Shown: positions 1-64,000 of the stretch, piece by piece
How the letters are laid out: each line of letters opens with the position of its first letter
Numbering within the stretch: the first letter of the stretch is position 1
Assembly: GCA_052327205.1 (NCBI GenBank)
Contig: JBMRGM010000040.1
Location: 35,960,001 to 36,024,000, forward strand
Source of the DNA: Somniosus microcephalus
Taxonomy: Eukaryota
Reading direction: 5' to 3'
DNA length: 64,000 nt
The notes under the pieces: generated by a model
Databases searched by the model: none
What the model was told of the DNA's origin: nothing
The model's input: only the letters and a program-made list of their open reading frames with translations
Program-made: the position numbers and the translations under genes

Positions 1-87
1 AGCGACAGAACAGTCAGTGAGCGGTTTGTACTGAGAGCGGAGGCGAGATCCTCGGCACAAGAATCTGTGAGTCCGACATCAACCAAC
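1..87 (-). CDS. LRR exon (partial, runs off the window) of NLR/ribonuclease-inhibitor-like gene
   Basis: Acceptor ...tgatccccag at 88-89, then LVDVGLTDSCAEDLASALSTNRSLTVLS, an RI-like leucine-rich repeat and a paralog of the exon at 226-396. Confidence 0.9.
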
Positions 88-225
88 CTGGGGATCAGAG
101 AAATAACAAGAATCGGAGTAAATCCCCAGAGTTTATTAATAACACTGTTACTGATACTAATAATAAATATTCAGTGTCAGACATCCAGTTATTATAAACA
201 CAATCTCACACAGTCTGGTACTTAC

Positions 226-396
226 CGCAGTTTCTGTATTTTAAATTCCGGGTTCCTCAAAGCCACAGACAGAAGTTTCACTCCTGAATCTCCCAGTTTA
301 TTATTACCCAGGTTCATAACCGTCAGCGAGCGGTTTGTACTGAGAGCGGAGGCGAGATCCTTGGCACAAGAATCTTTGAGACCGACAGCCTGTAGA
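226..396 (-). CDS. 171-nt LRR exon of NLR (NLRP3/NLRC3-like) or ribonuclease-inhibitor-like gene
   Basis: cag acceptor and gtaag donor, phase 2/2, 171 nt (canonical NLR LRR exon size). Reads LQAVGLKDSCAKDLASALSTNRSLTVMNLGNNKLGDSGVKLLSVALRNPEFKIQKL. Confidence 0.92.
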
Positions 397-442
397 CTGG
401 GGATCAGGGAGAGAAATAGTAAGTATCAGAGTCTGAATCAGG

Positions 443-3400
443 GAGGCTCCGGGATGGGGTCGGGGGAGAGCTGGGGTCGGGGGAGGGCCGGGGGAGGGCC
501 ATGGTTCAGGACGGTCATGTTCGGGTTTGGGGGAGGGCCGGGGGAGGGTCGGTGCTGGGGGAGGGTTGGGGCCAGGGTCGGGGGAGGGTTGGGGCCGGGG
601 TCGGGGAAGGGCCGGGGGAGGGGAATGGAAGGGGCTGGAGGAGGTTTGGCGTAGGGCCAGTGGAGTGTCGGGGCTGAGATCGGGTCGGGGGCTGGTCGGG
701 GGAGGTGGAAGGTAGGGGGAGGGTCAGGGATGATGGAGGGTCTGGGGCTGAGGAGGGTCTGTGGTGGCTCGGGGCCGGGGTCAGTGTCGGGTCCGGGCCG
801 GGGTAAGGGTAGGTTCGGGGGAGGGTCGGGGGAGGGCCAGGGAGGGTCGGGGGAGGGCTGAGGCCGGAGTAGGGCGAGGGTTGGGGTCTGGGCCGGGGAC
901 CCAGGAGGGCCATGTGAGGGTCCAGCCCAGGGTTGGGGGAGGGTCAGTAGAGGTTCAGTGGAGGTTTGTTGGAGGGCCGGGTGAGGGCCGGGGTCGAGGG
1001 AGGGTCGGGTTCGAGGGAGGGTCGTGGCCGGGGGAGGGTTGGGGGAGGGCCGGTTTTGAGGGGGGTCGGGGGAATGAAGGGGAGTGTCGGGGTCGTGGGA
1101 GGGTCGGGGCCGGGTGAGGGGGCGAGCCGGGGGAGGGTCGTGGCCGGGGGAGGCTCGGGGGTAGGGCTGGGGATGTGGGAGGGTCGGGGAGAGCCGGGGG
1201 AGGGTCAGGGGAGGGCCGGGGTCTGGGGACGATCGGGTGAGGGCCAGGGACAGGGGAGGGTCAGGGACGAGGGAGAGGAGGGGGAGGGCCGGGGGTGATT
1301 CACGTTCGGGGGAGGGTCGGGGCCGGGGGAGGGGAAGGGGAAGGGCCGGGGGAGGGCCAGGTTTGGGGGAGGGCTGTGGTAGATGGAGGGCCGGGGTAAA
1401 GGGAAGGTCAGGGGAGGGCTGGGGTGGGCCAGGGGAGTGTCAGGTGAGGATCGAGGTCGTGGGAAGGTCGGGGTAGGCCAGGGGAGGGCTGGGAGAGGGT
1501 CGGGGTCGAGGGAGGGTCGGGGTTGATGGAGGGGTAGGGGAGTGCTGTGGCCGGGGGTGGTTAGGGCGAGGCTCGGGGCCGGGGTCGGGGGAGGGTCAGA
1601 TGAGGGTCGGCGGAATGTCGGGGGAGTGTCGGGGGATGGTCGGGTCGAGGGAGAGTCGGGGTCGAGGGAGGGTCAGTGTAGGGCCGCGGGAGGATTGGGA
1701 TTGTGCCAGGGGAGGGTCGGGGGATGGTCGGGATCAAGGGAGGTTCGGGGGTGAGCGGCGGTCGGGGGAGGGTCGGGGACGAGGGAGGGTCGGGGGAGAG
1801 TCGTGGTCGGGGTAGGCCCGGGGTCAGAGGCGGGCTGGGGTCGGGGGAGGTGGAGGGCTGAGGGAGGATCAGGGCATGGTCGGCGGATGGTCAGGGCCGA
1901 CGTCGGGGGAGAGTCAGCGAGGGCCGTGGCTGGGGGAGGGGGAGTGATGGGGTCGGGGGAGGGCCGTGGGAGTTTCGGGGCCGGGGGGAGGGATGGGGGA
2001 TGGCAGGGGTTGATGGAGGGTCTGGCTCGAAGAGGGTCGGGGAGGGTCGGGGTCGGCGATGGAGGAGAGCCGGGGGAGGCACTGTGCCGGGGTCGTGCCA
2101 TGGTCGGACGAGGTTCGGGGTCGAGGGAGGGCCAGTGGAGGCCCGGGGGAGGGCCGGGGGTGGGTCGGGGCCGGGGGAGGTCCCCGTTCGGTGGAGTGCT
2201 GGGGTCGGGGTAGGGCCGGGGTCCAGGGAGGTTCGGGGGAGTGCCGGGATCGAGGGAGGGCCGGAGAGGGCCAGTGTTGGGGGAGGGTCGGGAGAGGGCC
2301 GGGGTCGAGGGACATTTGGGGGAGGGCCGGGGTCGGTGTCGGGCTGGGGTCGAGGGAGGGTCGGGCGAGTATCGGGGTCGAGGGCGGTTCGGGGCAGAGT
2401 CGGTGTCGAGGGAGTGCCAGCGGAGGGCTGGGGGAGGGCCGGGGGATGGTCGGAGGAGGGCGGGGGTCAAGGGAGGGTCGGATGAGGGCCAGGCTCGTGG
2501 GAGGGTTGGGGAAGTGCCGGGGGAGGGCCGGGGTTGTGGGAGGGCCAGTTTCGACGGTGGGTCAGATGAGGGCCGGGGTTGTGATAGGGTCGGCTGAGGG
2601 CTTGTGGAGGGCCGGGTCCGAGGGAGCGCTGGGGCTGGGGGAGGGTCGGGGTCGAGGGAGGTTCAGAGGAGGGCAGGGGTCGAGGGAGGTTCAGAAGAGG
2701 GTCGGGGTCGTGTCGCGGGAGGGCCTGCGCCGGGGGAGGGCCGTGGTCAGGGGAAAGCAGGGGTCGGGGTAGGGCCAGGGTCGAGGGAGGTTCGGCGGAG
2801 GGCCGGGGACAAGGGAGGGCAGGGGAGGGCCAGGTTTGGGGAAGGTTCTGGGTCGTGGGATGGTCGGGGAGGGCCGGGGCTGGTGGAGGGTCGGGGCCGG
2901 GTGAGGGTCGGGTCAGGCGGAGGGCTGGCCCGGGGCAGGGCTGGGGGAGAGCCGGGGTCGGGCCGGGGTCGGGTGAGTGTTGGGGAGAGCCAAAGTCGGG
3001 GGAAGGCCAGGGTCGAGGGAGGGCCGGGGTCGGGGGAGGGCCGATGTCAGGGGAGGGACGGTGTCGATGGATGGTCGGGGGAGGGTCGGGGTTGGCAGTT
3101 TCGGGGGAACGTCCGGTCGAGGGAAGGTCGGAGAGGGCTGGGGAGGGCCAGGGTAGGGTCATGGGAGGGTCGGGGTCGAGGGAAGGTCGGGGGAGGGTCG
3201 GGATCGAAGGAGTGTCGGGGTCGAGGGAGGGTCGGGGGAGTGTCAGGGGAGGGCCGGGGGAGGGTCGGGGGAGAGCCGAGGGAGGGCCGGGGGAGGGTCG
3301 GGTGAGAGCCAGGGGAGGGTCGGGGAATGCCGGGGGAGTGCCGGGGGAGGGCCAGGGCCAGGGGAGGGCTGGTGTCAGTGGAGTGGGAGGGATGGGGTCG

Positions 3401-6252
3401 AGGTAGGGTCCGGGTAGAGGGAGAGTTGGGGGAGGGTCAGTGTCGAGGGAGGTTCGGGGGAGGGGCGGGTCGAGGGAGGGTCGAGGAAGTGTCGGGGTCA
3501 ATGGAGAGCTGGGTGAGGGTTGGTGTCAGAGGCGGGTTGGGGGAGGGTAGGGGGAGGGTCGGGGTCGAGGCAGGGTCGGGTTATGGTGAGTGTTGGGGGA
3601 GTGTTGGGGGTGGGTTGGGGCAGGGCCGTGGGAGGGTCGGGGTCGAAGTGGGTCAGAGGAGGGCCGGAGTCGAGAGAGTGTCAGAGGAGGGCTGGGGTCG
3701 GGGGAGGGTCGGGGAGGGCATGGTGAGGGCCAGGGTTGGGGGAGGCCTGGGGTCGAGGGAGGGTCGGAGGATGGCCGGGTTTGGGGTAGGGTCGGGGGAG
3801 AGCCTGGGGAGGGCCGGGGCCGAGGGAGGGCTGGTGCCGGGGGAGGGCCGAGGTCGAGGGAGTATCGGGGAGTGCCGGGGTCGGGGGAGGGTGGGAGAGG
3901 GCCAGGGTCGAGGGAGTATCGGGGGAGGGCCGGGGTCGGGGGAGGGTCGGGGTTGATGGAGGATCGGGGGAGGGTCAGGTCAGTTTCGGGTTCGAGGGAG
4001 GGTCGGGGGAGAGTCGGGGGAGGTTCAGGGCCGGGGTCGGGTGCCGGTCGGGGTTGGGAGTTTCGGGGGAGGGACGGGTCAAGGAAGATTTGAGGGAGTG
4101 TTGGGGTGGAGGGATAGCCGGGGGATGATCGGTGTTGGGTGCGGGTTGGGGCAGGGTCGGGGGAGGGCCGGGGGTGGGTCCGGGGAAAGTTGGGTTCGAG
4201 GGAAGTTCAGGGGAGGGTCGGGCTCGAGGGAGTGTCGGGGTCGAGAAAGGGTCGGGAGAGGGTCAGTTTCGAGGGAGGTTTGGGGGATGGGCAGGTCGAG
4301 GGAGGGTCGAAGAAGTGTCGGGATCAATGGAGAGCCGTGCGAGGGTCAGAGCCGGGTTGGTGGAGTGTCAGGGGAGGGTCGGGGTCGAGGCAGGGTCGGG
4401 GTCGGTCGAGGCTTCGAGGAGTGTCGGGGGAGGTTCGGGAGAGGGCCGGGGGAGGGTCGAGGTCGAAGTGGCGTGGAGGAGGGCCGGGGTCGAGGGAGGG
4501 TCGGAGGAGGGCTGTGGTCGGTGGAGGGTCGGGGATGTCCGGGGGAAGGCCGGGGTTTGGGGAGTGTCAAGGCCGTGTTCGGGGGAGGGTCGGGGCCAGT
4601 TTCGTGGGAGGGTCGGCGGAGGGTCAGGGGAGGGCCGGTGGAGGGCAGCGGACGGGTTCGGGGGAGGGCCGGGGCCGGGGTCACAGGAGGGCCAGGGGAG
4701 GGTCGGGCCGTGGTCGGTGGAGTGTCGGGGGAGGGTTGGGGGAGGGTCCTGGTTGAGGGAGAGATGGGGGAAAGCTGTGAAAGGCCGGGGGAGGGTCGGG
4801 GGAGGGTCGGGGCCGGAGGAGAGTCGGGGGATTGGGAAGGTCGTAAGAGGGTCAGTGCCGGGGTCGGGTGAGGTTTGGGGCCGGGGTCAGCAGAGGTCCG
4901 TGGCAGTGGGTGGGGGAGTGCCGGGGTCGGGGGAGGGCCAGGGCTGGGGGAGGATTGGGCCGCGGTAGGGCCGGGGCCAGGTGAGGGGAAGGGCCGGGGG
5001 AGGTTCACGGCCAGGGGTCGGGGCGGGCTGGGGGAGGGACTGGGTCGAGGGATGGTCGGGGAGTGCCGGTGGAGGGCCGAGCCGGGTGAGGTTGGGGGCC
5101 GGGGGAGGTCCGGGGCAGGGCTGGGGGAGAGCCGGGGGAGGGCTGGGGTCGGGGGAGTGTCGAGGTGGGCCAAAGTTGGGGGAGGGCCAGGGTCGAGGGA
5201 AGGCCGCGGGAGGGGGAGGGCCGGTGTCGGGGGAGGGTCGGTGTCGATGGATGGTCAGGGGAGGTTCGGGGTTGGGAGTTTCAGGGGAGGGTCCGGTCGA
5301 GGGAGGGTCGAGTGAGTGTCGGGTTCGAGAGAGAGCCAGGGGATGGTCGGGGTCGGGGGCGGGTTGCGGGAGGGTCAGGGGATTGCCGGGGGGGTGTCCA
5401 GGGAGGGGAGGGGTCGAGGGAGTGTCGGGGGAGGGCCGGGGGCGGGCAGGGTTGGGTCAGGGGAGGGTAGGGGTCGAGAGAGGGTCGGGGTAGTGTCGCG
5501 GTTCGGGGAGAAGGAGGGTCGGGGGAGGGGGAGGGGGAGGGTCGGGGCGGGGTCGGGGTAGGGTCGGCAGAGAGCCGGGGTTGGGGGCAGGGTGGGCCGG
5601 TGTCGGGGGAATCTCGGGTGAGGGTCGGGGGAGGGCTGGGGGAGGGTCGGGGGAGGGCCAGGGGAGGGCCGGTTGAGTGTCGGAGTGGGTCAGAGCCAGG
5701 GGAGTGTCGGGGGAGGGCCAGGGCCAGGGGAGGGCCGGGGTCGGGGGGAGGGGCAGCGACGGGGTCGAGGTAGGGTCGGGTTCGAGGGAGGGTCGGGGAG
5801 GGTCGGGTTCGAGGGATGTTCGGGGGATGGGCGGGCTCGAGGGCGGGGGAGAGCCGGTTGAGGGACGGGGCCAGGGGAAGACTGGGGAAGGGCCTGTGTT
5901 GGGGTCGGTCGTGGTCGAGGGAGAGTAGGGGGAGGGTCGAGGTCGAGGGAGGGTCGGGGCCGGGTCGGGGGATGGTCGGGGAAAGGCCGGGGGTGGGCCG
6001 GGGGTGGGTTTGGGTCGGGCGGGGGCTGGGTCTGTGGAGGGCCAGTGGAGGACCGGGTGCAGGGGTGGGGGAGGGCTTTCGGATCGGGGGTGGTTCGGGG
6101 CCGGGGGAAGGGGAGGGGCGGTATCAGGGGAGGGTCAGGTGAGGGTCGGGGGAGGGCCGGGGGAGGTTCGGGGGTTGGTCAGGTCCGCGTTCTGGCGGGA
6201 GTCGTTGGAAGGTTGGGGGAGGGTCGGTGGAGGGCCGGGGCAGGGGGAGGGT
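443..6252 (+). repeat. G-rich degenerate minisatellite (GGGGAGGGTCGGGG / GGGGAGGGCCGGGG units), ~5.8 kb
   Basis: Continuous short G-run units with strong strand asymmetry; all ORFs here are low-complexity G/R or P-rich artefacts. Confidence 0.95.
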
Positions 6253-6254
6253 GC

Positions 6255-8200
6255 ACAAATACAGCAGAACACCACGTAAAATCCAGAGAGTGCATGTGGC
6301 AATTGAAAAACGATATAAGAAGGGCAAAGAGAGATTATGAAAACAGATTGGCGGGTAACATTAACAGAAATACAACAACCTTCCATATATAAAACCTCAA
6401 AGTTCAGTTAAAGGAATGGTGGGGCCGATCAGAGTAAAAAGGTCAATATTCTTGTGGAGGCTGATGCTATAATTGAGGTGCGGAATGAGTATTTTGCATC
6501 TGTATTCACAAAAGAGGATGAAATAGCAGTAGAAGATGGGAAGTATATATATTGGATAGGATAAATATAGGTAGAAAAGTGGTGATAAATGTGTTGGAAT
6601 CATTCAAAGGTAACAAGTTTTCTGGTACACAAGGGATGCATTCTACAGTGCTTGGTGAATCTATGGTGAGATGGCAGAAGTTCTGACCACCGTCTTGCGA
6701 CCCTCCTTGGAAATGTGAGTGTTTCCAGAGGACTGAATGATTGCAAATGTCAGTGACTGTTCAAAACGGGGAGACCGATGAACCTGGTAACTACAGGCTA
6801 ATCAGTCTACGTTCAGCAGTGGGACAACTACTGGAAACCACAGTCATTGACAACATTAATTCTCATTTAGAGAAACATGGTTTAGTAAGGGAGAGCCATT
6901 TGTCCCTTATTAATGTATATTGTTCAGGGATAATATTGCTTGATTGCCCTGATTGAGTTATTTGATGAAGTGGGAATGAGGGTTGGAGAAGGTATTGCAG
7001 TAGCTGTTGTGTATATCACGAATTTCAATAATATATCACATAACAGATTCACTAGAGATGTAGAAACACGTGGTATTAAAGGGACGGTGGTGAATAGTGT
7101 TCTTAAATGGCTAAGGGATAAGAGGCAGAGAGTAGTGGTGAACAGGTGTTGTTCTGACCATGTGGAAGTACGCAGTGGTGTACCCCAGGAGTCGGTGTTA
7201 AGACCATTGATTTTCGGGTTATGTAGAAATGAGCTGGACCTATGATTAAGGGATAAAATTTCGAATTTGCGTTTCATGCTAAATTTGGCAAAGTTGTAAA
7301 TTTTGAGCAGGATAGCAGCAGACTGCAGGCGCATATAGTCAGAGTGTTGAAATGGAAAAACATATGACAGATTCAATTTACTGCGGCTAACTGTGCAGTG
7401 AAGCACTTCGGGAGAAAAGCCATGGAGAGGCCGCATAATGTAAGTCACAATATCTTCAAGGGGTAAAAGCTCAAAGAGAACACACTCACAAAGCATTGAA
7501 GCTGGCACGGCAAGTAAATAAAGCAGCATAGAACGTGTATGGGATATAACAACAGAAAATGCTGGAAAAACTCAGCAAGTCAGGCAACATCCGTGGGATA
7601 ATTGGCTTTCAAAAAAGAGCCATTGAATACAACAACAATAAAGTCATGCTAAACATTTTCAAATCACTTTTTAGGCCTCAGCTGGAGCATTGTGTACAAT
7701 TCTAAGCACCGCACTTTATGAACGATGTCAAGTTCTTTGGAGGGTAGGGAGAAGGTTTCCAGCATGATACTAGGGATGAGGGACCTCAATTGGAGAGGCT
7801 GAACTTGTTCACCTTATAACAGAACATGGCAATGGGAGAGCAGATAAAGGTACTCGCAATAATGTGGTGCTTTGATAGAGCAAATAGCGACAAACTTGTT
7901 CCCCTTAAAAGTGGGTCGGCAACCAAAGGTCACAGATATAAAATTAAACTGAAAATCGCAGATAGGGGAAATGACAGGAAATTATTTGACACGGGATGTT
8001 GGTAATATCTGGAAAGCACCACCTGAAGCAGTGGTGGGATCAGGTTACATAGGATCTTTCCAAAGGCCATTGGACATATACATGAAGAGCACTAATTTGC
8101 ATGGTTACGGGTAAAATGTTCCAGGCTGGGACTAATTTGGACAGATCTTTCAAAGAGCCGACACATGGAGGACAGGCCGAATACCTCATTCTATGATTCT
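6255..8200 (+). mobile_element. Old degraded CR1 LINE (RT region to 3' tail)
   Basis: PGNYRLISL and SGVPQESVL motifs, attctatgattcta 3' tail; paralog at 24480-25960. Confidence 0.85.
7547..7593 (-). mobile_element. Short Penelope-type 3' fragment inserted into CR1
   Basis: Reverse complement matches tgcctgacctgctgagt...ccagcattttc at 15393-15430. Flanked by a TGGGATA duplication (7540-7546, 7594-7600) and absent in the paralog at ~25660. Confidence 0.7.
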
Positions 8201-10249
8201 AACTAAATAAGGTCAATTGAGATGAGCGTTTGTAAACAATTCCAATAACCCAAGGCTAGGATAAAGCTGTACCTTGGGCCTAATGAAACAAAGCAGCTTT
8301 AAATGATGATCAGATACACAAACAGTCCATTATGTGACTGAGTGAATCTATCAGTAAAAGCTAAAGGAAAGCAGTTGGGTGGAGTATGTGTGCAAACACT
8401 GAGCATCTTTACAAATCTCCACATGCAAACATACCACGGAACAGGATGGCAATGCAAGTGACGTAGATCCATTATGGACTGGCTGGTGGCATTAACGGTG
8501 GGAATTCAGATTGAACATGATGGAGATTAAGAGATAAATTTTGAGCACAAAAGGCAGCTGTAGCATAGTGTTTGTTGAAGGACGTTGGTCTCTGCCCTCT
8601 GTGCAGATCTATCTCTCAGTGAGCTGCTCAGCTCTAGCAGACTGAATGAGGAAGGGGACTTTAAATAAATTCATAGATCTGAAAACAGCCTAAATTATTC
8701 ACCAGAAAAGTTTAGTTTTACAGACAATACACACACGCTCATAAATACCTCAAAGTGCCTTAAATGGAGGTGCAAGATGTCAAAGAGAATGAAAAATAAG
8801 CAAACAAAGGGAAAATGGTCTGTGCTGCAGAGAACAGTAACAGCAGTTAGTTGTCATAACGGAAGGCAGTGGTTTAAAATTGAAGGAGCTTTAGTTCAAA
8901 TGAAGAGGAACTGATCTGCTCACAGAAAGAACAGTGTCTCAGCACCAACGGAAGAGCTGAAAATATATTTTCTGGATAATCCACTGACTGTTAATATTTT
9001 TTATTGTTGATTCCCTCTCCAAATCTCCTGAATCATAGAATCAGATAAGCGTCCAGCACAGGCACAGATCATTCGGCCCGTTGTGCCTGCGTCAGCCGGA
9101 AAGACTTTGCCTTTGCCCACTGAAAACAATCCTGTTCTGTTCAGCAAATTACCAGGCTTTACAGAACCGACAGAATAACATTATTTCAAGTGAACATCTT
9201 TGTGAAACCTCAAACATAATCAGCTGCTATTGTGAATTATCAGACACAAATATAACCGTTTTATTTCAATTCGTCTAATCCTTCCCCTTTCCTTTTTAAA
9301 CGAGGCGACTCACACTGGAATGCGATTGTAAGGGCGACATTTTTCTGTTTTGCCCTTGGGGAGAGTGGAAACTTTCCATGTCTGAGCCCAGCCGCTGTGT
9401 GTCCGTGAACAGTCTGATTACAGAAGGTGTAAACATGGACCCTGAGAGTGTTCTCAGTGGACATCCACTAATCAACACTTTATAAAGGAGACACGTGGTA
9501 ATGTCCAGCAGCGGGCATTCTCTCTACTTCACACTCCGCCCAAAATCACTCATCTCTCCGGAAAACTGACACCAGGAGCATTCTTTTAACTGAGAATTCT
9601 GCAGAAACAAGTATCCACTCCGAAGGCTTTCCAATCTAAACAGTTTCAATCCAAACGAGGAGATACTTTCATCCACTGAGCGACTGGACATCGGACACCG
9701 CCGGGCTCAGTCCCGAACTACAGCTTACATTTGCCCACTCAGTTACTTCACAGAACTGGAATGCAATAATTTAGGTACAAAATTGTTTCGCGACTCACCA
9801 AACATCAGTAACAAGGCGGCTGTGTCCATGTTCTAGAGTGAGCTACTTTGAGACATGAGAGCTGCCAGGAACGGTGACTGAGTCGCTTGCAACGCCTCCC
9901 AGAATATCATACCTGGAAGCGTTCAGAGAATGAGAGCAGAAACAGAGGTTGAGAGGAAGTGATGTGGCCCCACAATTAAATGAACAGCACCACAATAAAA
10001 TAAGGATTGGATCTTAGCAAGGTCCAACATGGGAGCATTTTAATTTCACACCATAACCTCAGATGAAGAGCCTAGATTGGACAATGAACACAGTACAACC
10101 CCATCAATAATTTGTCATTAGTTAGAACCGTCACTCTCAACATGGTCAGAAACTCAAGTTCTGGCGACAGATCGCTTCATACTTCAGCCTCTTGGTGTCA
10201 GCATCAAACAATCAAAAGTCATGCGCACTAGAGGAAAATTAATGACAAA

Positions 10250-54946: not shown

Positions 54947-55900
54947 TGTAACCATAGGATTTAGTAAAAATTATTAAGATTCTATAACCATTTTTACATA
55001 ACTATAATATGTGAAATTGTATGTTAAAAGCATACAAGCCTGTATAAAATCGCGAATGGCTGAGAGCAAAGCAGGATGGGAAATTATGCCAACCTGACTA
55101 AAAACACTGCTGAGTTTACAATTAATGAAGTAATGGAATGTAGTGCTAAGTTTATGGAGACGAGGAATTCAGCAATATTATGCGTAAAGAGATAAGAACT
55201 AGAGAGGGAGATAGGAGTTGGATACATCCTTCAGTAGTATAGCTATAGGATGGAGAGTCTGTTTAGAAAATGTTCAAGGAAATCCTTTGTGCAAAGTGAA
55301 CATCTAAGATAAGGATACTTAGTAATGCATAGAGACAAAACTACTGGGATCAACCTGGTCATAAAATGGCTACCGAGGGAAGCAAGACTTTTTACCTGGT
55401 GTCAGAGGGTTAATTACTGCCACGTAGGCAAAACGAGAGGTAAAAGGATATAAAGATTCAGGTTTTGAACATCGAAAGCAGCGCACCATGTAGCCAGAGA
55501 TTGATAGCAGCTTCGGTCAACAGAACACAGCGAGATACCAAGGAAGCGAGCTTCGGTCAACAGAACACTGCAAAATCCCAAGGAAGCGAGCTTCGGTCAA
55601 CAGAACACAGCAAAATCCCAAGGAAGCGAGCTTTGGTCAACAGAACACAGCAAACTCCCAAGGAAGCGAGCTTCAGTCAACAGAGCACAGCAACATAAAA
55701 TCAGGAGACCACGCAGCAGTCACTGGGAAGGAACGCCGAGTTCGAGGAACAGACTCTGACTATCTCCTTGTTCAGTACTACTGATTTGTACTGGATGTTT
55801 AATGTTTAATAAACCTGTTTAACTGATACACAATATAGCTGAACCCGGAGTGGTTTGTGTAGTCACGGACACATTATTATAAGAGCTTTTAAAAGCTACA
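54947..55900 (+). repeat. 5' LTR (~954 bp)
   Basis: TGTAAC...GCTACA termini, TATAAA at ~55449, AATAAA at 55808, followed by PBS. Left boundary inferred from the inverted repeat only. Confidence 0.75.
55505..55695 (+). repeat. 40-bp tandem repeat (~5 copies) within LTR
   Basis: aggaagcgagcttcggtcaacagaacacagcaaaatccca at 55541, 55581, 55621 and 55661. Confidence 0.95.
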
Positions 55901-55903
55901 GAT

Positions 55904-55921
55904 TGGCTCCCAACGTGGGGT
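55904..55921 (+). promoter_or_regulatory. Primer binding site, tRNA-Lys1,2
   Basis: TGGCTCCCAACGTGGGGT versus canonical TGGCGCCCAACGTGGGGC (16/18). Confidence 0.9.
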
Positions 55922-56061: not shown

Positions 56062-58800
56062 ATGTCGAGTGAGATTGTTTTTTTTAGATTATAAAGCGAA
56101 GTTAATGAAGAAGTGCGATGATGCACAATTGCAGCCATTGATAGTAGAATGTCTAACAAAGGATGTGAGAGTATCTTTGGAGGACGTTTTTGCATTCATT
56201 GAAAAGCAAGTTAAGGAGAAGTGATGGAAGGCGGATAGGGCAGTGCAGCTACTGATCTATGCCGCAGTGTATTGTGTGGAACAAGATAAAGAAACCTTCC
56301 TAGAAATGGAAGATGATCAGGATGAATTAGAAAAAGACAAACTACGGGTGATACAAGACAATCTAACGTTTACGGGTGCAAACTCGCAGCATGTAGAGGA
56401 GAATTTAACGTTTCAGTGGGAAAAGTTAAGAGAGAATCTAACGTTACAGAGTGAAAAGTCAAAATCGGAGAAAGAAGCCTTAGAGTTAAAAAACAAGAAT
56501 ACAATTGTTCAGGGACATGTCGGTGACTCGGCAGCAATAATGCAGCAACAGATTATTAACACCGTTCACGCCAGCGCTGCAATGCAGAACCTTGAAGAGG
56601 CTAAAAGCCAAATAGCCTTCTGAACAAAAGATAATGGCCCAGAAATTCGGGTCCCAACACGTGAGTATGCACGGAGCAATCACGCATGGACCAAATGGAA
56701 CTGCCGGTATCTTGCATGCACTACGCATGCGCGGAAAGCCGGCACTTCCGTTCATCTGAACGAAGGGGTTCAGAGGTCGAACACATGCGTGCGGGAGTCT
56801 GTGCGTGCGTGTTGAACTTCCTTTTTTTTACAGGTTTTTCCGTGCACATAAGTCTCTACATTTTAGAAATGTAATAACCAGGCATAAGGACGTCATTTTA
56901 AAAGGTAAGTGGTCAATTACTTAAAATTGAAATTTTTTTTCCACAGGTTTAATATTTTTAAATACTTTAATCTAAGGTAGGTGTATTTTTAGCTCCGCTT
57001 TAAAAAAATTATTATTTTTTTTTAATTTAAATTATTGTTCAAATTGTTATGTAATGTTATTTATAATTTATTTAAAAAGTGTGATGTGTTTAAAAAAATT
57101 ATTTGAAGGTTAACTACTGTTTTGGTGGCTGGAGTATACATAAGGTTGACAGGTCTGTCTGTCAATCATATGAATGGGCTTTTACCCGCTCCAATTGGTT
57201 GCCCATGGCTCAAGTGATCCCAGTGGACGCATTGCACTAACTACGCCGCTGGATCACGCAAGCGCAGCATGCCGGGAGCTGGAACGGGCCACAGAGAGGA
57301 AATCCACGCAGGCCCAAGCCTCAAATGTCGGTGCGCTAGTTTAGTGTAGGTCGGGGGCTTTCACCTGCGGGAAGCCCCCGACCCGAATTTCTGGGCCATT
57401 GACGGCCTGATCAGTCAACTAAATGAGTCACGAGGGTCCCTTAGAGAGGCTCTTCAGTGTCCCCACAGGGAGTTAGACCACCAACAATGCCACAGTACTA
57501 TACAACAATTAGAAAAACTGTTGGGGAAACAATGGGCTGGAACAGCGGCAGTTACAGGAATAGACTCCCCCGGGTGTTGCGATCAGCAATACGAGAGGTT
57601 AAATGGACAGCTATTCTCTCCCTTGGTGTCTGCTTCCCAAAAGGCCCCCATCTCGTATGCCACCAATAACTTGGCTGGGAGGCCCCCAGCCTACGCGAAT
57701 AACAGTATAAAATCCTCAGTGAGCGAGCCTGTACTTGTTAAAGCCCCAGTTAAAATTCTGACCCGCACCCAAGTGATTCCTAACCCACCACCAGCACCAG
57801 CTGCGGTAGGTGATAAGGCTCAAGCAGCACAAGCAGTACCACCAGCGGCAGGCCCTCCGGGAATGTTGTGGGCAGGTACTTACGAACGATCCAAGCCCCT
57901 GAACTATGCAGAGTTACAGGGATGTGGCCAGCAATTCGGACCAGTTAACCCACATAAATGCTGTCTAGAGCTAAGGCAACGTACAGTGGCATTCCGGAAT
58001 TAACACACCAATTTTGAGGATAGTGACATGAAAAATGTTGTACTGTCTACCCTGACTCCGGATATATGGACCAGTCTCCCATTCCTGGCATTTAATGTGG
58101 GAAATACCCTAAATGCTTTAATCACATACATAAAGACAGCTCTAGGTTTGGATACTATTGATTTGGTCCAGGAATTAAACCAGACCCAACAAGGGGCTCA
58201 TGAGACCCCTGCTGCAATCGGGGATCGGTTGTACACTATTGATGAGATGACACAGGCCCGCCCCAATGCTGATGCATTAAACGGGAAAGATGAAGCAGCA
58301 TTTAAGACAATATACTTAAAGAATATTCAGACCTCACTGCGAACAGCCTTGGGGCACACTGTCACCCACAACTCACAGCGGACCAACCTATTAAGAGATG
58401 CTACTTCTGAATGGGATTATGTAAAATTCAGGTCCGGACACCAATAACAGAAACGCCAGTGAATGTAGTTCAGGGGCCTCAGGCCCCTCCGGTGTCCAAC
58501 TCCTGAAGAAAACAGTTCATATGTTATAACTGTGGAAACGTGTGATACTTTGCAAAGGATTGGCAGAATCCGAGACAGACAGGCTCAGGAGGTGGGAGGA
58601 AGAATAATAATTACTCGAAATATGGTTCGTCCCGCTCACCCAATCCAATGGACTGTAAAATAGATGCCCTAGGCTCACAAAAGGAGAGAATAATGCAAAC
58701 TCTTGCATTGAACCAGAGTTCGGGGAGTCCAGTGGCTCCAGCCATGAGCTCATTATTCCCACCCTCACCACCGCCCCAACAATTTAATGGCCCACAATGA
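56062..58800 (+). pseudogene. gag: ERV gag (coiled-coil N-terminus, PPAY, capsid-like, degenerate CCHC), interrupted by MITE
   Basis: ORF fragments 56243, 57521 and 58028; QQGAHETPAAIGDRL MHR-like; CYNCGNV*YFAKDW knuckle at 58522-58563. Confidence 0.8.
56636..57397. mobile_element. MITE (PIF/Harbinger-like non-autonomous), 762 bp
   Basis: Perfect 18-bp TIR GGCCCAGAAATTCGGGTC, 3-bp flanks AAT/ATT, AT-rich core. Confidence 0.85.
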
Positions 58801-61800
58801 CGGAGTCCCACCCCACTGGCCTGGTCTGAAGTGGGGTTCAGACGAGATGGCCATGGTCGACCAGTTTTCTCAGCTTTGCTGCCTGCGGGCCGACAGCTGA
58901 CTATGCTAATAATCACTGGGTTATCTGTTACAATCCTGCATTCCCCAGACACCGAACTCCAACTTGAAATAGGCAAAAGTAGCGTCGTCATAACGGGAGT
59001 CACCGGTGCACAAGCACCCGTATATCCAGGGGAGGCACTTAGTATTTACCTTGAGACCTTCCCCGTAAAAATACCGATCCATTGTATATGTGTATGACAA
59101 ATAGAATGGGAATACTTGGGAATGATACCCTAAGGGGAATGACAGCTATTATAGATTACAATCAGAACTGTATATGCTTTGAACCTAAACCAGGAGACAT
59201 AGTGCAGATTTCAGACGCTCACGGTGTTTGCTATAAAGAAGCCTGAGCAGATCACGCTGCCGAAACATTCCCTGCCTGTTGTTAAATCCTTAGTGACCAA
59301 ACATGCAGCTGCCTTTGCTATATCTGAACACGACTGCGGGAGAAAGGAAGGGGAAACACAAATTAATGAGCCACTCCATCGTGCAGGCAACTGGTACCCG
59401 ATTCCCCGAGAAAGTATTTTGTATTTGCGAACAGCCATTGTCTCATTAGAAGAACAGGGTCGTTTGCCACTAATTCCCCTGCATGGCCGGTAAGGAAGCC
59501 AGATGGATCGTGGAGGCTTACTATTGATTACCGAGCCCTAAACAAAGCTTCCCCACGTCAGAGTCCGACTGTTAGTCGAGCCCCTTCTCTGTTAACATCC
59601 ATACCCACCAAGGCCACAGTCTTCTCTGCTCTAGGCATAGCGAATGGTTTCTGGAGTACTCCTGTTGCTCAGGAGAACCAGCATAAATTTGCGTTCACTT
59701 TTGAAGGGCAGGGCTACACATTTAAGTGTTAACCGCAGGGGCTTCATAACTCGCCATCGATCTTTCATCAATAAATGGCACAAGAGTTAAAGATTTTTCT
59801 AAACCATCGGTCCATCTACAGTATGTTGATGACCTGCTCCTTGCTACTGAAACAATGGAGGAATACCTAGAACTTCTAGATGAATTGATAGGGTTAGTAC
59901 AGAAGGCAGGGCTCAAAGTAAATCCAAAAAAGGCTCAGCTGGCAAATGATGAGGTTACATTTTTGGGAGTAAAAATTTCAGAAAACGGCCTGTGTCTGGA
60001 CGATCTAAATGTAGAGACTTTTCAGCGGCTTTCACTGCCAGTTTCAAAGACTGCACTGCGATCCTTTCTAGGCCTGGTTGGATATCAATGAAATGTTATT
60101 CCGAACTTTGCAGACTTGGCTAAACCTTTGTATGATCTTTTAAAGGGCGACGTGGAAGAGATACAACCCGTATCGGGAGAATACCATTCTGCTGCGGTTA
60201 GTGCTTTGAAACGAGTCAAGATACAGGCTACAGCTCTCATTTCCCCGGATCATATTCAGCCCCTTCACCTTGAAGTAGGCTCCACCCCTTCCAGCTAAAG
60301 TGCCATTTTAAGTCAGAACCAGGCAATTAATGAGATACTACACCCCATCGCTTATGCCTCACATATCTTACGAGGGCTGGAAGGCACATTCTCAGTGTGT
60401 GATCGGCACCGGTTGGCAATATTTTGGGCTGTCAATCATTTTACTTATATCAGCGGACTACAGAAAGTAATTTTGCATTTACCACACACGCCCCTTAATC
60501 TGCTGCTAAAACCAAGTGAGACTAAGATGCCCTCTCAGCGAATCATACCTTTCTCCTAAACGAACTACACTGATACCCCTTATGCTCGCCTATGAGGGAA
60601 GCTTACACCAGTGTCCATTCCCAGTACTAGATATGGAACCAAATCCAATAAAGGCTAATGTCATACCTGGAACTTGAAATGTGTACATAGACGGATCATC
60701 ATACTATGTGGATGGCCAAACTATAACTGAATGTGCCCTCATTGATATGGACACCCCAAAATTGCCGGTGGGATTTCACGTTCCCGCCCAATCCTCTCAA
60801 CAAGCAGAAGTAATTGTAGTAATTCTCGCCACTCACTACACAATTACGGATGAAACTAATATCTGGTCCGACAGCAGCTACGTCTGGCCCTTCCCCTATA
60901 TCATATAAATGATTTTTGCTCATCAGATGGTAATTCTTTATTACATTCTGCTCTTCTCTGTAAGCTATGGGAAGTGCTCCAGGAGCGATTCGCCCCTTGT
61001 CATGTAGGAAAGGTAGCAGCCCATCAGAAAGCTTGATCCCCCACTCCTTGGTAACCTAGCAGCGGATCGCCTTGTTAACAGTCTATCCAATACCTTGGTG
61101 GGTGATGAATGACACACAGGCACCCGTAGTGGTAGCGGTTACCAAAGTTATAACCATTGATCTCTTGGCCATGCAGGACTCACATACACCCTATGCACAA
61201 GTAATAGCCTAGCATGAGCAAGGGCGCCCATTATCTGCACCAGCCTCATGGGCAGACTTAACTTTAGTACAACATGGTGCGGTGAAAAACCCTCCCCTGC
61301 TCATGGCGAGGAATATAGAGGGAGACTTAGTAGTTTGCATTCCTCCCCAATTGAAGGAAGAGATTCTGGTCCTTTTCCATTCTCACCCTACAGCGAGACA
61401 TTGCTCAGTGGCCACTACACTCCAAAACGTATTACCCGTTTCTTGGTGGCCTGAAAAGGAGCAGCATGTGGAACAATATGTTAATCGCTGCCTGCCATGC
61501 CGACAAACAAACCCTCCTTCATATTCTAATCACTCCTTACTTAGGTCACAGCCTCCTACCGAGGGACCATGGACACACCTGCAGATTGACTTTATTGGCC
61601 CGCTAACAATATCCAAGTGTAACTACGAGTTCACACACGTTGTCATTGTTCAGTTCACTAAATGTTTGGAGGCGTTTCCCACAAGAAATAATACAGCACG
61701 CACAGCAGCCCGAATTCTATGGAGTGAGGTGTTCTGTAGGTGGGGATTATCACTACAAGTGGATAGCGATTAGGGTCCACACTATACGGGGGCAGTTTTC

Positions 61801-62717
61801 ACAACCCCACAAGAAATGTTACAATAAAATATCATTTGCACATTGCCCACCATCCACAATCATCAGGGATCGTGGAGTGGTGGAATCGAACTTTAAAGAC
61901 AATGTTGCAGAAGTTGTGTACTGAACACCCCACTCAATGGACTGACATGTTGCCCTTATGCTTAATGGCAATACGTTCAGCCCCACACGAGACTACGAGG
62001 GTAAAGCCATATGAAGCCATGACTGGGAGGCAGATGCAAATACCAGGACATCAAACACTGGGGAATAATACAACTTTAAAATTGCAACCATGTAGCCAAA
62101 AATGGTTACAAACCCTGATATATTATATGGCCGAGGTGAACAGAATAGTGTCCATTGACACAGGCAAATCACGTGAACAAATCAAGCGATATTATGATAA
62201 GAGGGTCAACCATTTCAGTATGATGTTGGAGACCAAGTGATGTTACGAAATTTCTCTCCAAGGAAACACTCATTCGAGGTAAAATGGACAGGCCTGCATA
62301 CCTTAGCAGATAAAAGAAATCCAGCTGTGTAACATAGAAACATTGAAACATAGAAGATAGGAGCAGGAGAAGGCCGTTCGGCCCCTCGAGCGTGCTCTGC
62401 CATTTAATTAGATCATGGCTGATCATCCGAATTCAGAAACCTACCCCTGCTTTCTCCCCATATCCCTTGATCCATTTAGCCTCAAGAAATATATCTATCT
62501 ACCTCTTGAATATATTTAATGAATTGGCCTCAACTGCCCTGTGTGGTAGAGAATTCCATAGGTTTACCACTCTCTGGGTGAAGAAATTCCTCCTCAACTC
62601 AGTCCTAAATGGCTTACCCCTTATCCAGTGTACCTACTGAATGTTCCATATGGTCCAAAGGGAGAATGTAAACGTAAATGGATCCATATCAGCCAGATGG
62701 AAACTGTTACGAATTAA
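58801..62717 (+). pseudogene. pol: ERV pol (protease, RT, tether, RNase H, integrase) with stops and frameshifts
   Basis: LIITGLS (decayed DTG), WRLTIDYRALN, PQGLHNSP, YVDD at 59822, YIDGSS..AE..SDS RNase H, HHCC, GPWTHLQIDFIGPL, HHPQSSGIVE. Confidence 0.93.
62332..62627 (-). mobile_element. CR1 3' end inserted in integrase C-terminus
   Basis: CR1 tail with GTGTA duplication; removal restores NPAVYLL...KWIHISQM. Confidence 0.88.
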
Positions 62718-62743: not shown

Positions 62744-64000
62744 ATCAGAGATGTAGCGCTGCTAACTGATATTGATGATTGGATGTGCAGTGAAACTTCT
62801 GGAGGTACATCTGTACACTGGGCGAAGGAGGCAAATGCGCCCCATTCCCCATCTATGGAATGGAACCTCCAATCATTGGTGGACATAAACAATCAAAAGA
62901 CCGTAATGGTACATCTGAGACATATAAGGAAGATGTTCACGTTTGGATTTGAAATAGTACAAAAGATAATATAACAACACCATACGTAATGGGTTGTGGT
63001 ACATTACAAGGCAAGGTGTATAGTTGCGAAATAAATCACGGAGATGGTGTGTGTTTCAGATGCAGGAAAGGGACAACAAAAGCCCAAATATATGGAAATT
63101 CCTGAAGAAAAGTAATTGGATCTGGGAACATGTACAAGAATCAAACCAGGGCCCAGTGGTCTCGAAAAGGAAGGAAAATATACAATTGTGCTGGGCTCGG
63201 TGGTGTAAGAAAAAGACCGGTCAGTATTCTTATATTGGATCAAATATTATCACGAAACTTAAAAATCAGGATGATGAATGGCCTCCTATCCACGAATATA
63301 ATGTAAAGATTACTAATTCAGCAGGATATGAGATTCCCAAAGATAATGTAGAGATCACCTCAGCAGAAAACAAACACTATATGGTACCCTTTAGCCGTTG
63401 GGGGAAATTAGAAGCATTCCAGATTTGTCAGTTACCAGGATCCCGGGCATGAAAATACCATGGTAGAATTCAAAGATTCAATAACTGGGTGTATGAGGGA
63501 AGGTGGATATGTCTACAGCGTTGAACTCACACGTTATAAGAAAACAAGCCATTCAGAACCCCAGGAAGAACTGGAGAAACAATGTCCCCACTTAAAACCG
63601 GGACCTGGGAACGGCCATGTAATTATACCCACCTCTAAAGCAGTTTATCATCAAGTAATACCGGAATTGGCCCCTGTTATCCTCAGTTTAACAGAACTAA
63701 TACTACCAAAGTGCTGCCCTGACAAAACAGCGCAATTGACTGAAAGAATGTTGCAGCAAGTTTTTAACCAATACTGGGAAAATGCGACTTTGTTGGCAAG
63801 CATGCAGAAAACAGAAGGGGCCTTCCGCCATGAGCTTAGTACCACTCAAGAGGAAAGCCAGGAAAAGAATAGACAGAAAAGATGATTAATAAATGATGGC
63901 CTCACGGATTCCAACAAAGTAACCTGAGTAATCAACGCAATGACAACTGCAGATTTACAGAGTCAATTACAGACGGTAAGGGAAGAGTTGAAGGAGATAT
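62744..64000 (+). pseudogene. env: ERV env (partial, decayed)
   Basis: Candidate acceptor ctacccacag at 62743 just after the pol stop; ORF fragments with Cys/Trp; RQKR furin site at 63871-63882 followed by fusion-peptide-like and heptad sequence. Confidence 0.75.

Follow-up and report, generated by a model that had tools for sequence, protein, structure and literature searches.

The 64,000-nucleotide stretch of DNA analysed here (the window) ends inside a provirus, which runs from a 5' LTR through a primer-binding site, a broken gag, a broken pol and a repeat insertion to an env that begins at 62751 (Table 1). This provirus is a broken member of an abundant family of endogenous retroviruses, likely from a shark or ray; among named proteins, the closest come from Rhinoraja and Pristiophorus. 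The 5' LTR matches the 3' LTRs of 13 other copies and is 84-85% alike to a downstream 3' LTR (L088:6550-7355). Tandem repeats of 55 bp lie in the LTR at 55500-55870, with a long expanded array in the 3' LTR (L088:7410-8900); no target-site duplication was found, and the 3' LTR end is masked by the 55-bp array. The primer-binding site is one that we take to be tRNA-Lys-like. Repeats have inserted into gag at ~56640-57400, and a decayed zinc knuckle lies near 58520. The gag pieces of the window had no Pfam match, and the Gag of a sister family matched zf-CCHC below the Pfam cut-off (E=0.001). Pfam searches of the pol pieces returned RVT_1, RT_RNaseH and Integrase_H2C2, and the tether is also present in the window. 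RNA reads lie very deep, but only in part aligned, over the repeat between pol and env, and they leave the match at 62340 and 62626. Elsewhere, positions 1-6000 of the window are very G-rich (GC 0.67-0.73, skew ~0.6) and probably represent a simple satellite.

Table 1. Proviral features located in the window
Feature	Position	Strand	Basis or remark
5' LTR, TG...CA	54947..55900	+	Start possibly 10 nt further left; 55-bp tandem repeats inside
Primer-binding site	55904..55921	+	Sequence directly after LTR end
Broken gag	56063..58800	+	Position and translation by eye
Broken pol: PR, RT, tether, RNase H, integrase	58801..62330	+	Pfam and tblastn
LINE/SINE-type repeat insertion between pol and env	62331..62626	+	Repeat head recurs at L011:2215
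env start and signal peptide, two stops	62751..62807	+	Aligns to open-frame start in copy L014
N-terminal arm before Ig domain, one stop at 62950	62809..63015	+	tblastn to L014/L024
Probable immunoglobulin-superfamily domain, frame change near 63065	63016..63250	+	Pfam, PDB profile and fold searches
Family-specific spacer, ~110 aa, frame change near 63408	63251..63582	+	Alignment
F2-like subunit: Cys-Pro/PGPG start, strand, Cys, HRC-like helix, furin site RQKR	63583..63882	+	
F1-like subunit start: fusion-peptide position, first heptads; stops 63883, 63925	63883..64000	+	

The first-pass annotation, made from the letters alone, had opened env at 62744 and estimated ~0.85 kb of coding sequence upstream of a fusogen-like region. 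The start codon is at 62751 instead; the estimate agrees with the arm, which measures 832 nt from the env start to the first F2 cysteine (63583); in the order of parts, the arm amounts to ~250 aa. The motifs quoted for 63583-63996 are all present, including the in-frame stops at 63883 and 63925. These are two of the five env stops in the window, the others lying at 62754, 62763 and 62950. The arm changes frame near 62808, 63065 and 63408, with segments 1 and 3 differing in frame from segments 2 and 4. Env is cut 205 nt beyond the window by ~13 kb of other repeats: the F1-like part continues to L011:2205 and resumes at L088:5594-6397, a remainder that includes the membrane anchor and is followed by the 3' LTR. 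Extension past the window, as had been proposed, located the TM in this remainder; the open frames of other copies show a Cys-rich region and a TM. By eye, the env-splitting insertion contains a gypsy-like gag/protease piece and long LINE-like frames of 997 and 505 aa (L011:4249-5450, 5457-9983).

Searches of the genome with the window env gave 40 matches at the DNA level (81-100% identity) and 116 at the protein level; the feature is, therefore, not a product of chance. Twelve of the 40 DNA matches were 98-100% identical and confined to three contigs. Both stops were common to all ten near-identical copies fetched, and in the three long near-identical copies examined the matching ended at one common point. 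The locus was, therefore, duplicated after its death: the window copy died and was then copied within the genome. Distinct broken copies have each been multiplied as near-identical sets on single small chromosomes (C39: L048-L057; C36, C38, C40), pointing to large segmental or tandem duplications there. Older copies, at 81-91% identity, hold natural open frames of up to 628 aa, and in sister families, at ~40% amino acid identity, the env frame stays open over 784-852 aa; by hand count, 41 of 98 scored sister-family rows had a frame of at least 780 aa without a stop in the match. Several related families show large young expansions with many open env frames, which is unusual for vertebrate endogenous retroviruses. 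All searches and folds reported below used the natural open frames of copies, unaltered.

In two RNA runs of one study, whose organism may differ from the species of the window, a sister env was covered over all 30 bins and on both strands by 1359 and 1349 reads, mostly 90-99% alike; depth over the window env was 0-1.3. These reads fit transcription of some family copies, with read-through or DNA carry-over also possible; for the sister env, the listing of RNA holders was empty.

Downstream of the arm, the window env shows a PGPG strand from 63598, a Cys pair at 63709-63720, a helix at 63730-63777, the RQKR site at 63871-63882 and a heptad region at 63952-63996. Open frames in other copies give the complete order: signal peptide, arm, F2-like segment, RxKR, long helices, Cys-rich beta region, second coiled segment and TM. 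The signal peptide has a hydropathy of 1.8 over residues 1-19 of L014 and the TM one of 2.9 at residue 547 of the 594 in L039, where the post-cleavage segment is only mildly hydrophobic (mean 0.67 over 20 aa). The F2-like segment is kept across shark, frog, coelacanth and eel relatives.

Two identities, gamma-type and foamy Env, had been set against an F-like reading in the first-pass annotation. Gamma-type Env was rejected: neither ISD nor CX6CC occurs in any of the three open frames examined. A CxxC, which had been reported missing, does exist at 63052-63063; it is the B-strand Cys of the probable Ig domain and not a gamma-type motif. As for foamy Env, its post-fusion form was the top Foldseek row for the core, a weak match (E=0.007) in a search where no PDB row reached E=0.001. 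However, the accessible text of PMC11468914 shows foamy Env to be homologous to F, with a receptor-binding domain (RBD) inserted into it; foamy and F matches are, therefore, not alternatives, and opposing them was ill-posed.

Several searches bear on an F-like core. The env had no match in Pfam, in PDB sequences or in the first homologue search. None of 27 aligned members matched the Pfam F or Baculo_F profiles (PF00523, PF12259), and no F chain appeared in the PDB profile searches, including one with a deeper profile; a homologous piece in P0173 matched Baculo_F below the cut-off (E=0.0011). In an ESM Atlas feature search, P0002, which is 68% identical to the sister-family Env, had PF00523 ranked first (0.92, 201 of 256 features), against a background in which 4-10 of 100 shuffled proteins reach 0.9, and its Atlas structure had a TM score of 0.58 to a Baculo_F cluster. 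The AlphaFold model of the core is poor (pLDDT 37.8) and its Foldseek rows are leads only, with foamy post-fusion Env, hMPV F and RSV F at ranks 1, 3, 4, 5, 7 and 9; in a viral structure library, the top rows for the core were unrelated class III proteins. The F2/F1-like layout claimed at first pass is, thus, borne out by the Atlas result and by the motifs in common with lokiretrovirus (Loki) Env, with a low-confidence fold of its own and with Pfam and PDB profiles falling short of F. The env core is very probably a paramyxovirus-F-like class I fusogen.

The suggestion that the upstream sequence forms a separate N-terminal domain is also supported, and that domain now appears to be of the immunoglobulin type. 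Pfam returned Ig_3 in 11 natural frames, at the same place in both families and always below the cut-off (E=0.001-0.6); in one test, the Ig row was absent from 4 of 12 proteins, three of which have no arm. PDB profile matches of the arm were CRTAM (E=0.004-0.02), basigin and CD8a. The B-strand Cys, C-strand Trp and F-strand YxC are kept in 29 of 37 alignment rows, and the window copy itself is without the F-strand Cys. An AF2 model of the arm of L024, a member of the window family, contains a beta-sandwich at residues 48-123 (pLDDT ~60, below 50 elsewhere, including residues 124-230, within a spacer that is longer than that of the sister families). In Foldseek, this model drew antibody and basigin rows, the best of them at E=0.004 with none below 0.001, and in VIA mostly V/I-set rows (Z 4.7-5.5, rmsd ~3, ~80 aligned), although a Z of ~5 is common for beta-sandwiches and the top two rows are not IgSF. 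The Pfam, PDB-profile and fold lines are each weak but in agreement, and we regard an Ig fold in the arm as likely. A viral beta-sandwich that merely converged on Ig motifs, rather than descending from a host IgSF gene, would sit well with the weak scores and with the extra cysteines that flank the canonical ones. So would a genome search with the arm, in which all 150 scored rows were element copies and no host donor gene emerged, an outcome that is itself no evidence of absence. Such convergence nevertheless seems improbable, as the Cys/Trp/YxC spacing and strand order fit the V/I-set and a clearer V-set-like head is found in P0147 and the P0008 tail.

A search of 1.84 billion representatives yielded 58 proteins. 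Among 18 Env rows looked up, the named sources are sharks, frogs, coelacanth and eel, and the fronts of these proteins differ. Shark P0126, named 'Ig-like domain-containing' in UniRef, has an Ig head akin to that of the window family (hhalign 30.6, shuffles at most 15.1); its arm has an Atlas score of 0.86, which is a lead only. P0147 and the tail of frog P0008 carry a V-set-like head, and the heads of frog P0130 and P0153 are Ig-like by eye only, without a Pfam row. In shark P0125 and P0141 the head is Cys-rich, and P0151, coelacanth P0156 and eel P0188 are headless, the signal peptide leading directly to the F2-like start. Distant relatives, then, keep the fusion core, and the arm differs or is absent. 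Only 2 of 15 head profile pairs scored clearly above shuffles (window-sister 36.4; window-P0126 30.6); the shark, V-set-like and frog Ig heads gave no mutual match above shuffles, a non-match that is no proof of separate origins. On an Env-core tree of 20 rows, the Ig label needs four changes, at least three of them forced by starred branches; the tree is unrooted with long branches and does not distinguish gain from loss of heads. Env pieces also occur fused to host genes (Niban-like, C2H2 zinc finger, cadherin, F-box) in the shark gene models P0006, P0122, P0128 and P0173, which are either exonised ERV pieces or annotation errors.

By best summed tblastn score, the window pol is closest to Xenopus tropicalis P0012 (45% over 1175 aa). 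The nearest Pol relatives are frog proteins at 48-50%, and the nearest named ones are 'NYNRIN-like' frog proteins. Several frog 'NYNRIN-like' proteins are the Pol of the window element's lineage; in one such gene model, P0008, splicing joins a retroviral Pol to the signal peptide and Ig head of an env (residues 1195-1310). In a 31-row RT/tether tree, built without Loki, foamy or FLERV references, the window RT groups with P0012 (98/91) on a retrovirus side separated at 100/100 from 15 gypsy-type rows. It falls outside a clade formed by L087 (a 10.7-kb retrovirus-like IMG/VR record; RT 46% over 215 aa), two fish retroviral rows and five epsilon-like rows. RT bit scores were 201 for MLV, 189 for foamy virus and 144 for Ty3, and, of the structures solved so far, PFV gives the best integrase match (114 bits vs 89 for Ty3). 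The RT motifs of the element are of the LPQG/HNSP type, and those of teleost FLERVs differ from them. In the accessible portion of PMC7947760, the motifs CPFG/TPFG-x-x-NSPAEF and VPLSR occur in every one of the 12 Loki Pol passages displayed, out of 144 YVDD places; both are absent from the window element. A dual RNase H (tether plus RNase H) is present in the sister-family copies L061 and L066. Gag and pol of the sister family lie in one frame with a single stop between them (L061:1472-1474), suggesting read-through as in gamma and epsilon retroviruses. The L061 Pol also has a long Pro/Gly-rich tail after the integrase. In L013, env ends ~150 nt before the 3' LTR, with no room for accessory genes.

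These features bear on the lokiretrovirus link drawn in the first-pass annotation, which holds for Env, through motifs shared by eye, and fails for the virus, whose RT is without Loki motifs. If the element were a true lokiretrovirus, the first in cartilaginous fish and with an added head, the common Env motifs and dual RNase H and a tether that by eye is much like Loki's would be accounted for. The 'NYNRIN-like' names of the nearest Pol proteins would fit as well, the Loki integrase being closest to CGIN1/NYNRIN in the accessible part of PMC7947760. However, the LPQG/HNSP-type RT falls with canonical retrovirus rows, and in that same part of the paper Wang and Han report no Loki from cartilaginous fish, none of the six chondrichthyan genomes in their screen being marked for it. 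We consider this origin very unlikely; judging by its sequence, the element probably lies outside the lokiretroviruses.

A fish foamy virus that had shed the RBD insert and leader peptide from its Env would agree with foamy Env as the top Foldseek row, with the integrase nearest PFV and with what is presumably a Lys-like primer-binding site. Shark and frog FLERVs, moreover, cluster together in the accessible text of PMC5512871, as do the window RT and P0012. Against this stand a Gag with a zinc knuckle, the single frame that gag and pol share across one intervening stop, and the lack of space for accessory genes before the 3' LTR. The Env has a short signal peptide and no TM1 leader, with ~35 aa rather than 327 between HRC and furin site, and the RT is no closer to foamy virus than to MLV and differs in its motifs from teleost FLERVs. 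A reduced foamy virus is, on these grounds, an unlikely reading. From the RT motifs, and from a tree whose references include neither Loki nor foamy rows, we infer instead that the virus belongs to a basal, spuma-like shark/frog lineage and not to the lokiretroviruses proper. A wider proposal, which we make tentatively and with the balance somewhat against it, is that sharks, rays, frogs, coelacanth and eel are host to a retroviral lineage of a third kind, distinct from both Loki and foamy viruses. It would combine an F-type Env chassis with repeatedly added N-terminal attachment heads (at least three unrelated Ig domains taken from immune or adhesion genes of the host, and a Cys-rich head), and its recent invasion of this shark genome would have left dozens of open env frames, perhaps with the virus still circulating.

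Proviral context, copy family, order of parts, modularity, decay and the absence of gamma-type motifs are matters of direct observation. The best explanation, which we rate as probable, is that the locus holds the broken env of an endogenous retrovirus, likely from a shark or ray, and that its product was likely a paramyxovirus-F-like class I fusogen with a probable N-terminal Ig domain, likely for attachment. By analogy with F and foamy Env, furin cleavage at RxKR would free the fusion peptide, and the protein would form a trimer in which HRA and HRB refold into a six-helix bundle. The Ig head would perform attachment, the job of H/HN/G in paramyxoviruses and of the inserted RBD in foamy Env, a role assigned to it because a retrovirus is without a separate attachment protein. 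Receptor binding by the head is the least-supported step of this scheme, and we would give it an even chance. With the core still F-like and the head still Ig-like, the head might instead be an immune decoy, a shield or a spacer, with attachment residing in the F core: the headless P0151, P0156 and P0188 and Loki Env must attach too, heads are interchangeable, and the Ig matches are to immune and adhesion receptors. Attachment modules, however, usually sit in the N-terminal, most variable part of Env. The arm is both N-terminal and most variable, with an identity of 20-25% between the window and sister families against ~40% for the core, as expected for a receptor-binding part, and we find a decoy, shield or spacer unlikely.

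F-type Env is known from lokiretroviruses and, by structure, from foamy viruses, and the envelopes of the two had been regarded as unrelated or independently gained. A lineage that pairs an RT of canonical type with a Loki-like Env lies between the two groups and is relevant to the question whether retroviral Env began as an F-like protein. The present analysis adds the non-Loki placement of the RT and a series of heads that differ among relatives. The literature compared yielded no account of a retroviral F-type Env with an Ig head, recent cartilaginous-fish foamy virus work and some Loki supplement material lying beyond its coverage. Besides the papers cited individually, that literature comprised the accessible parts of PMC9040795, bioRxiv 2023.10.26.564294, PMC8227577, PMC13709493, PMC12690878, bioRxiv 2024.07.05.601823, PMC10699275 and PMC4422223; bioRxiv 2021.11.23.469661, in its accessible part, deals with gamma-type Env only. 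CmiFLERV and XtrFLERV are basal, spuma-like elements of shark and frog that group with each other, just like the window RT and P0012, and are set beside the window lineage by description and not by sequence; only their pol, and no env, is reported in the accessible text of PMC5512871.

The paramyxo- and pneumovirus F (PF00523) and the baculovirus and errantivirus F (PF12259) share with the window Env the F2/F1 order, furin site, HRA, Cys-rich domains, HRB and TM. They differ in having no N-terminal Ig head, their Ig-like domain II lying inside the core, and they give no profile-level match to it. Loki Env, as far as the accessible part of PMC7947760 shows it, has in common by eye the signal peptide, PGP-type F2-like start, RxKR, coiled coil, G-x-I/V-P-S, the Cys pattern of the beta region and the TM, and Loki Pol shares the dual RNase H. 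In the Loki Envs shown there (Pma, Xtr, Xla, Aro; ~580 aa), the signal peptide leads straight to the PGP start, whereas the window family adds ~250 aa with a probable Ig domain. Foamy Env, in the accessible text of PMC11468914, is likewise an F-type retroviral core with a built-in extra module and no separate attachment protein, and most relatives of the window Env have a sequon just before the HRC-like helix, like foamy Asn183. The foamy RBD, however, spans 327 aa between HRC and furin site, behind an N-terminal TM1 leader, whereas the module of the window family is N-terminal, Ig-like and placed behind a short signal peptide, with ~35 aa between HRC and furin site. An N-terminal head would, thus, add a third place of insertion to the ones in foamy Env and coronavirus spike, and the headless, Ig-headed and Cys-headed forms on one core offer a natural series for a fusion-only protein gaining an attachment module.
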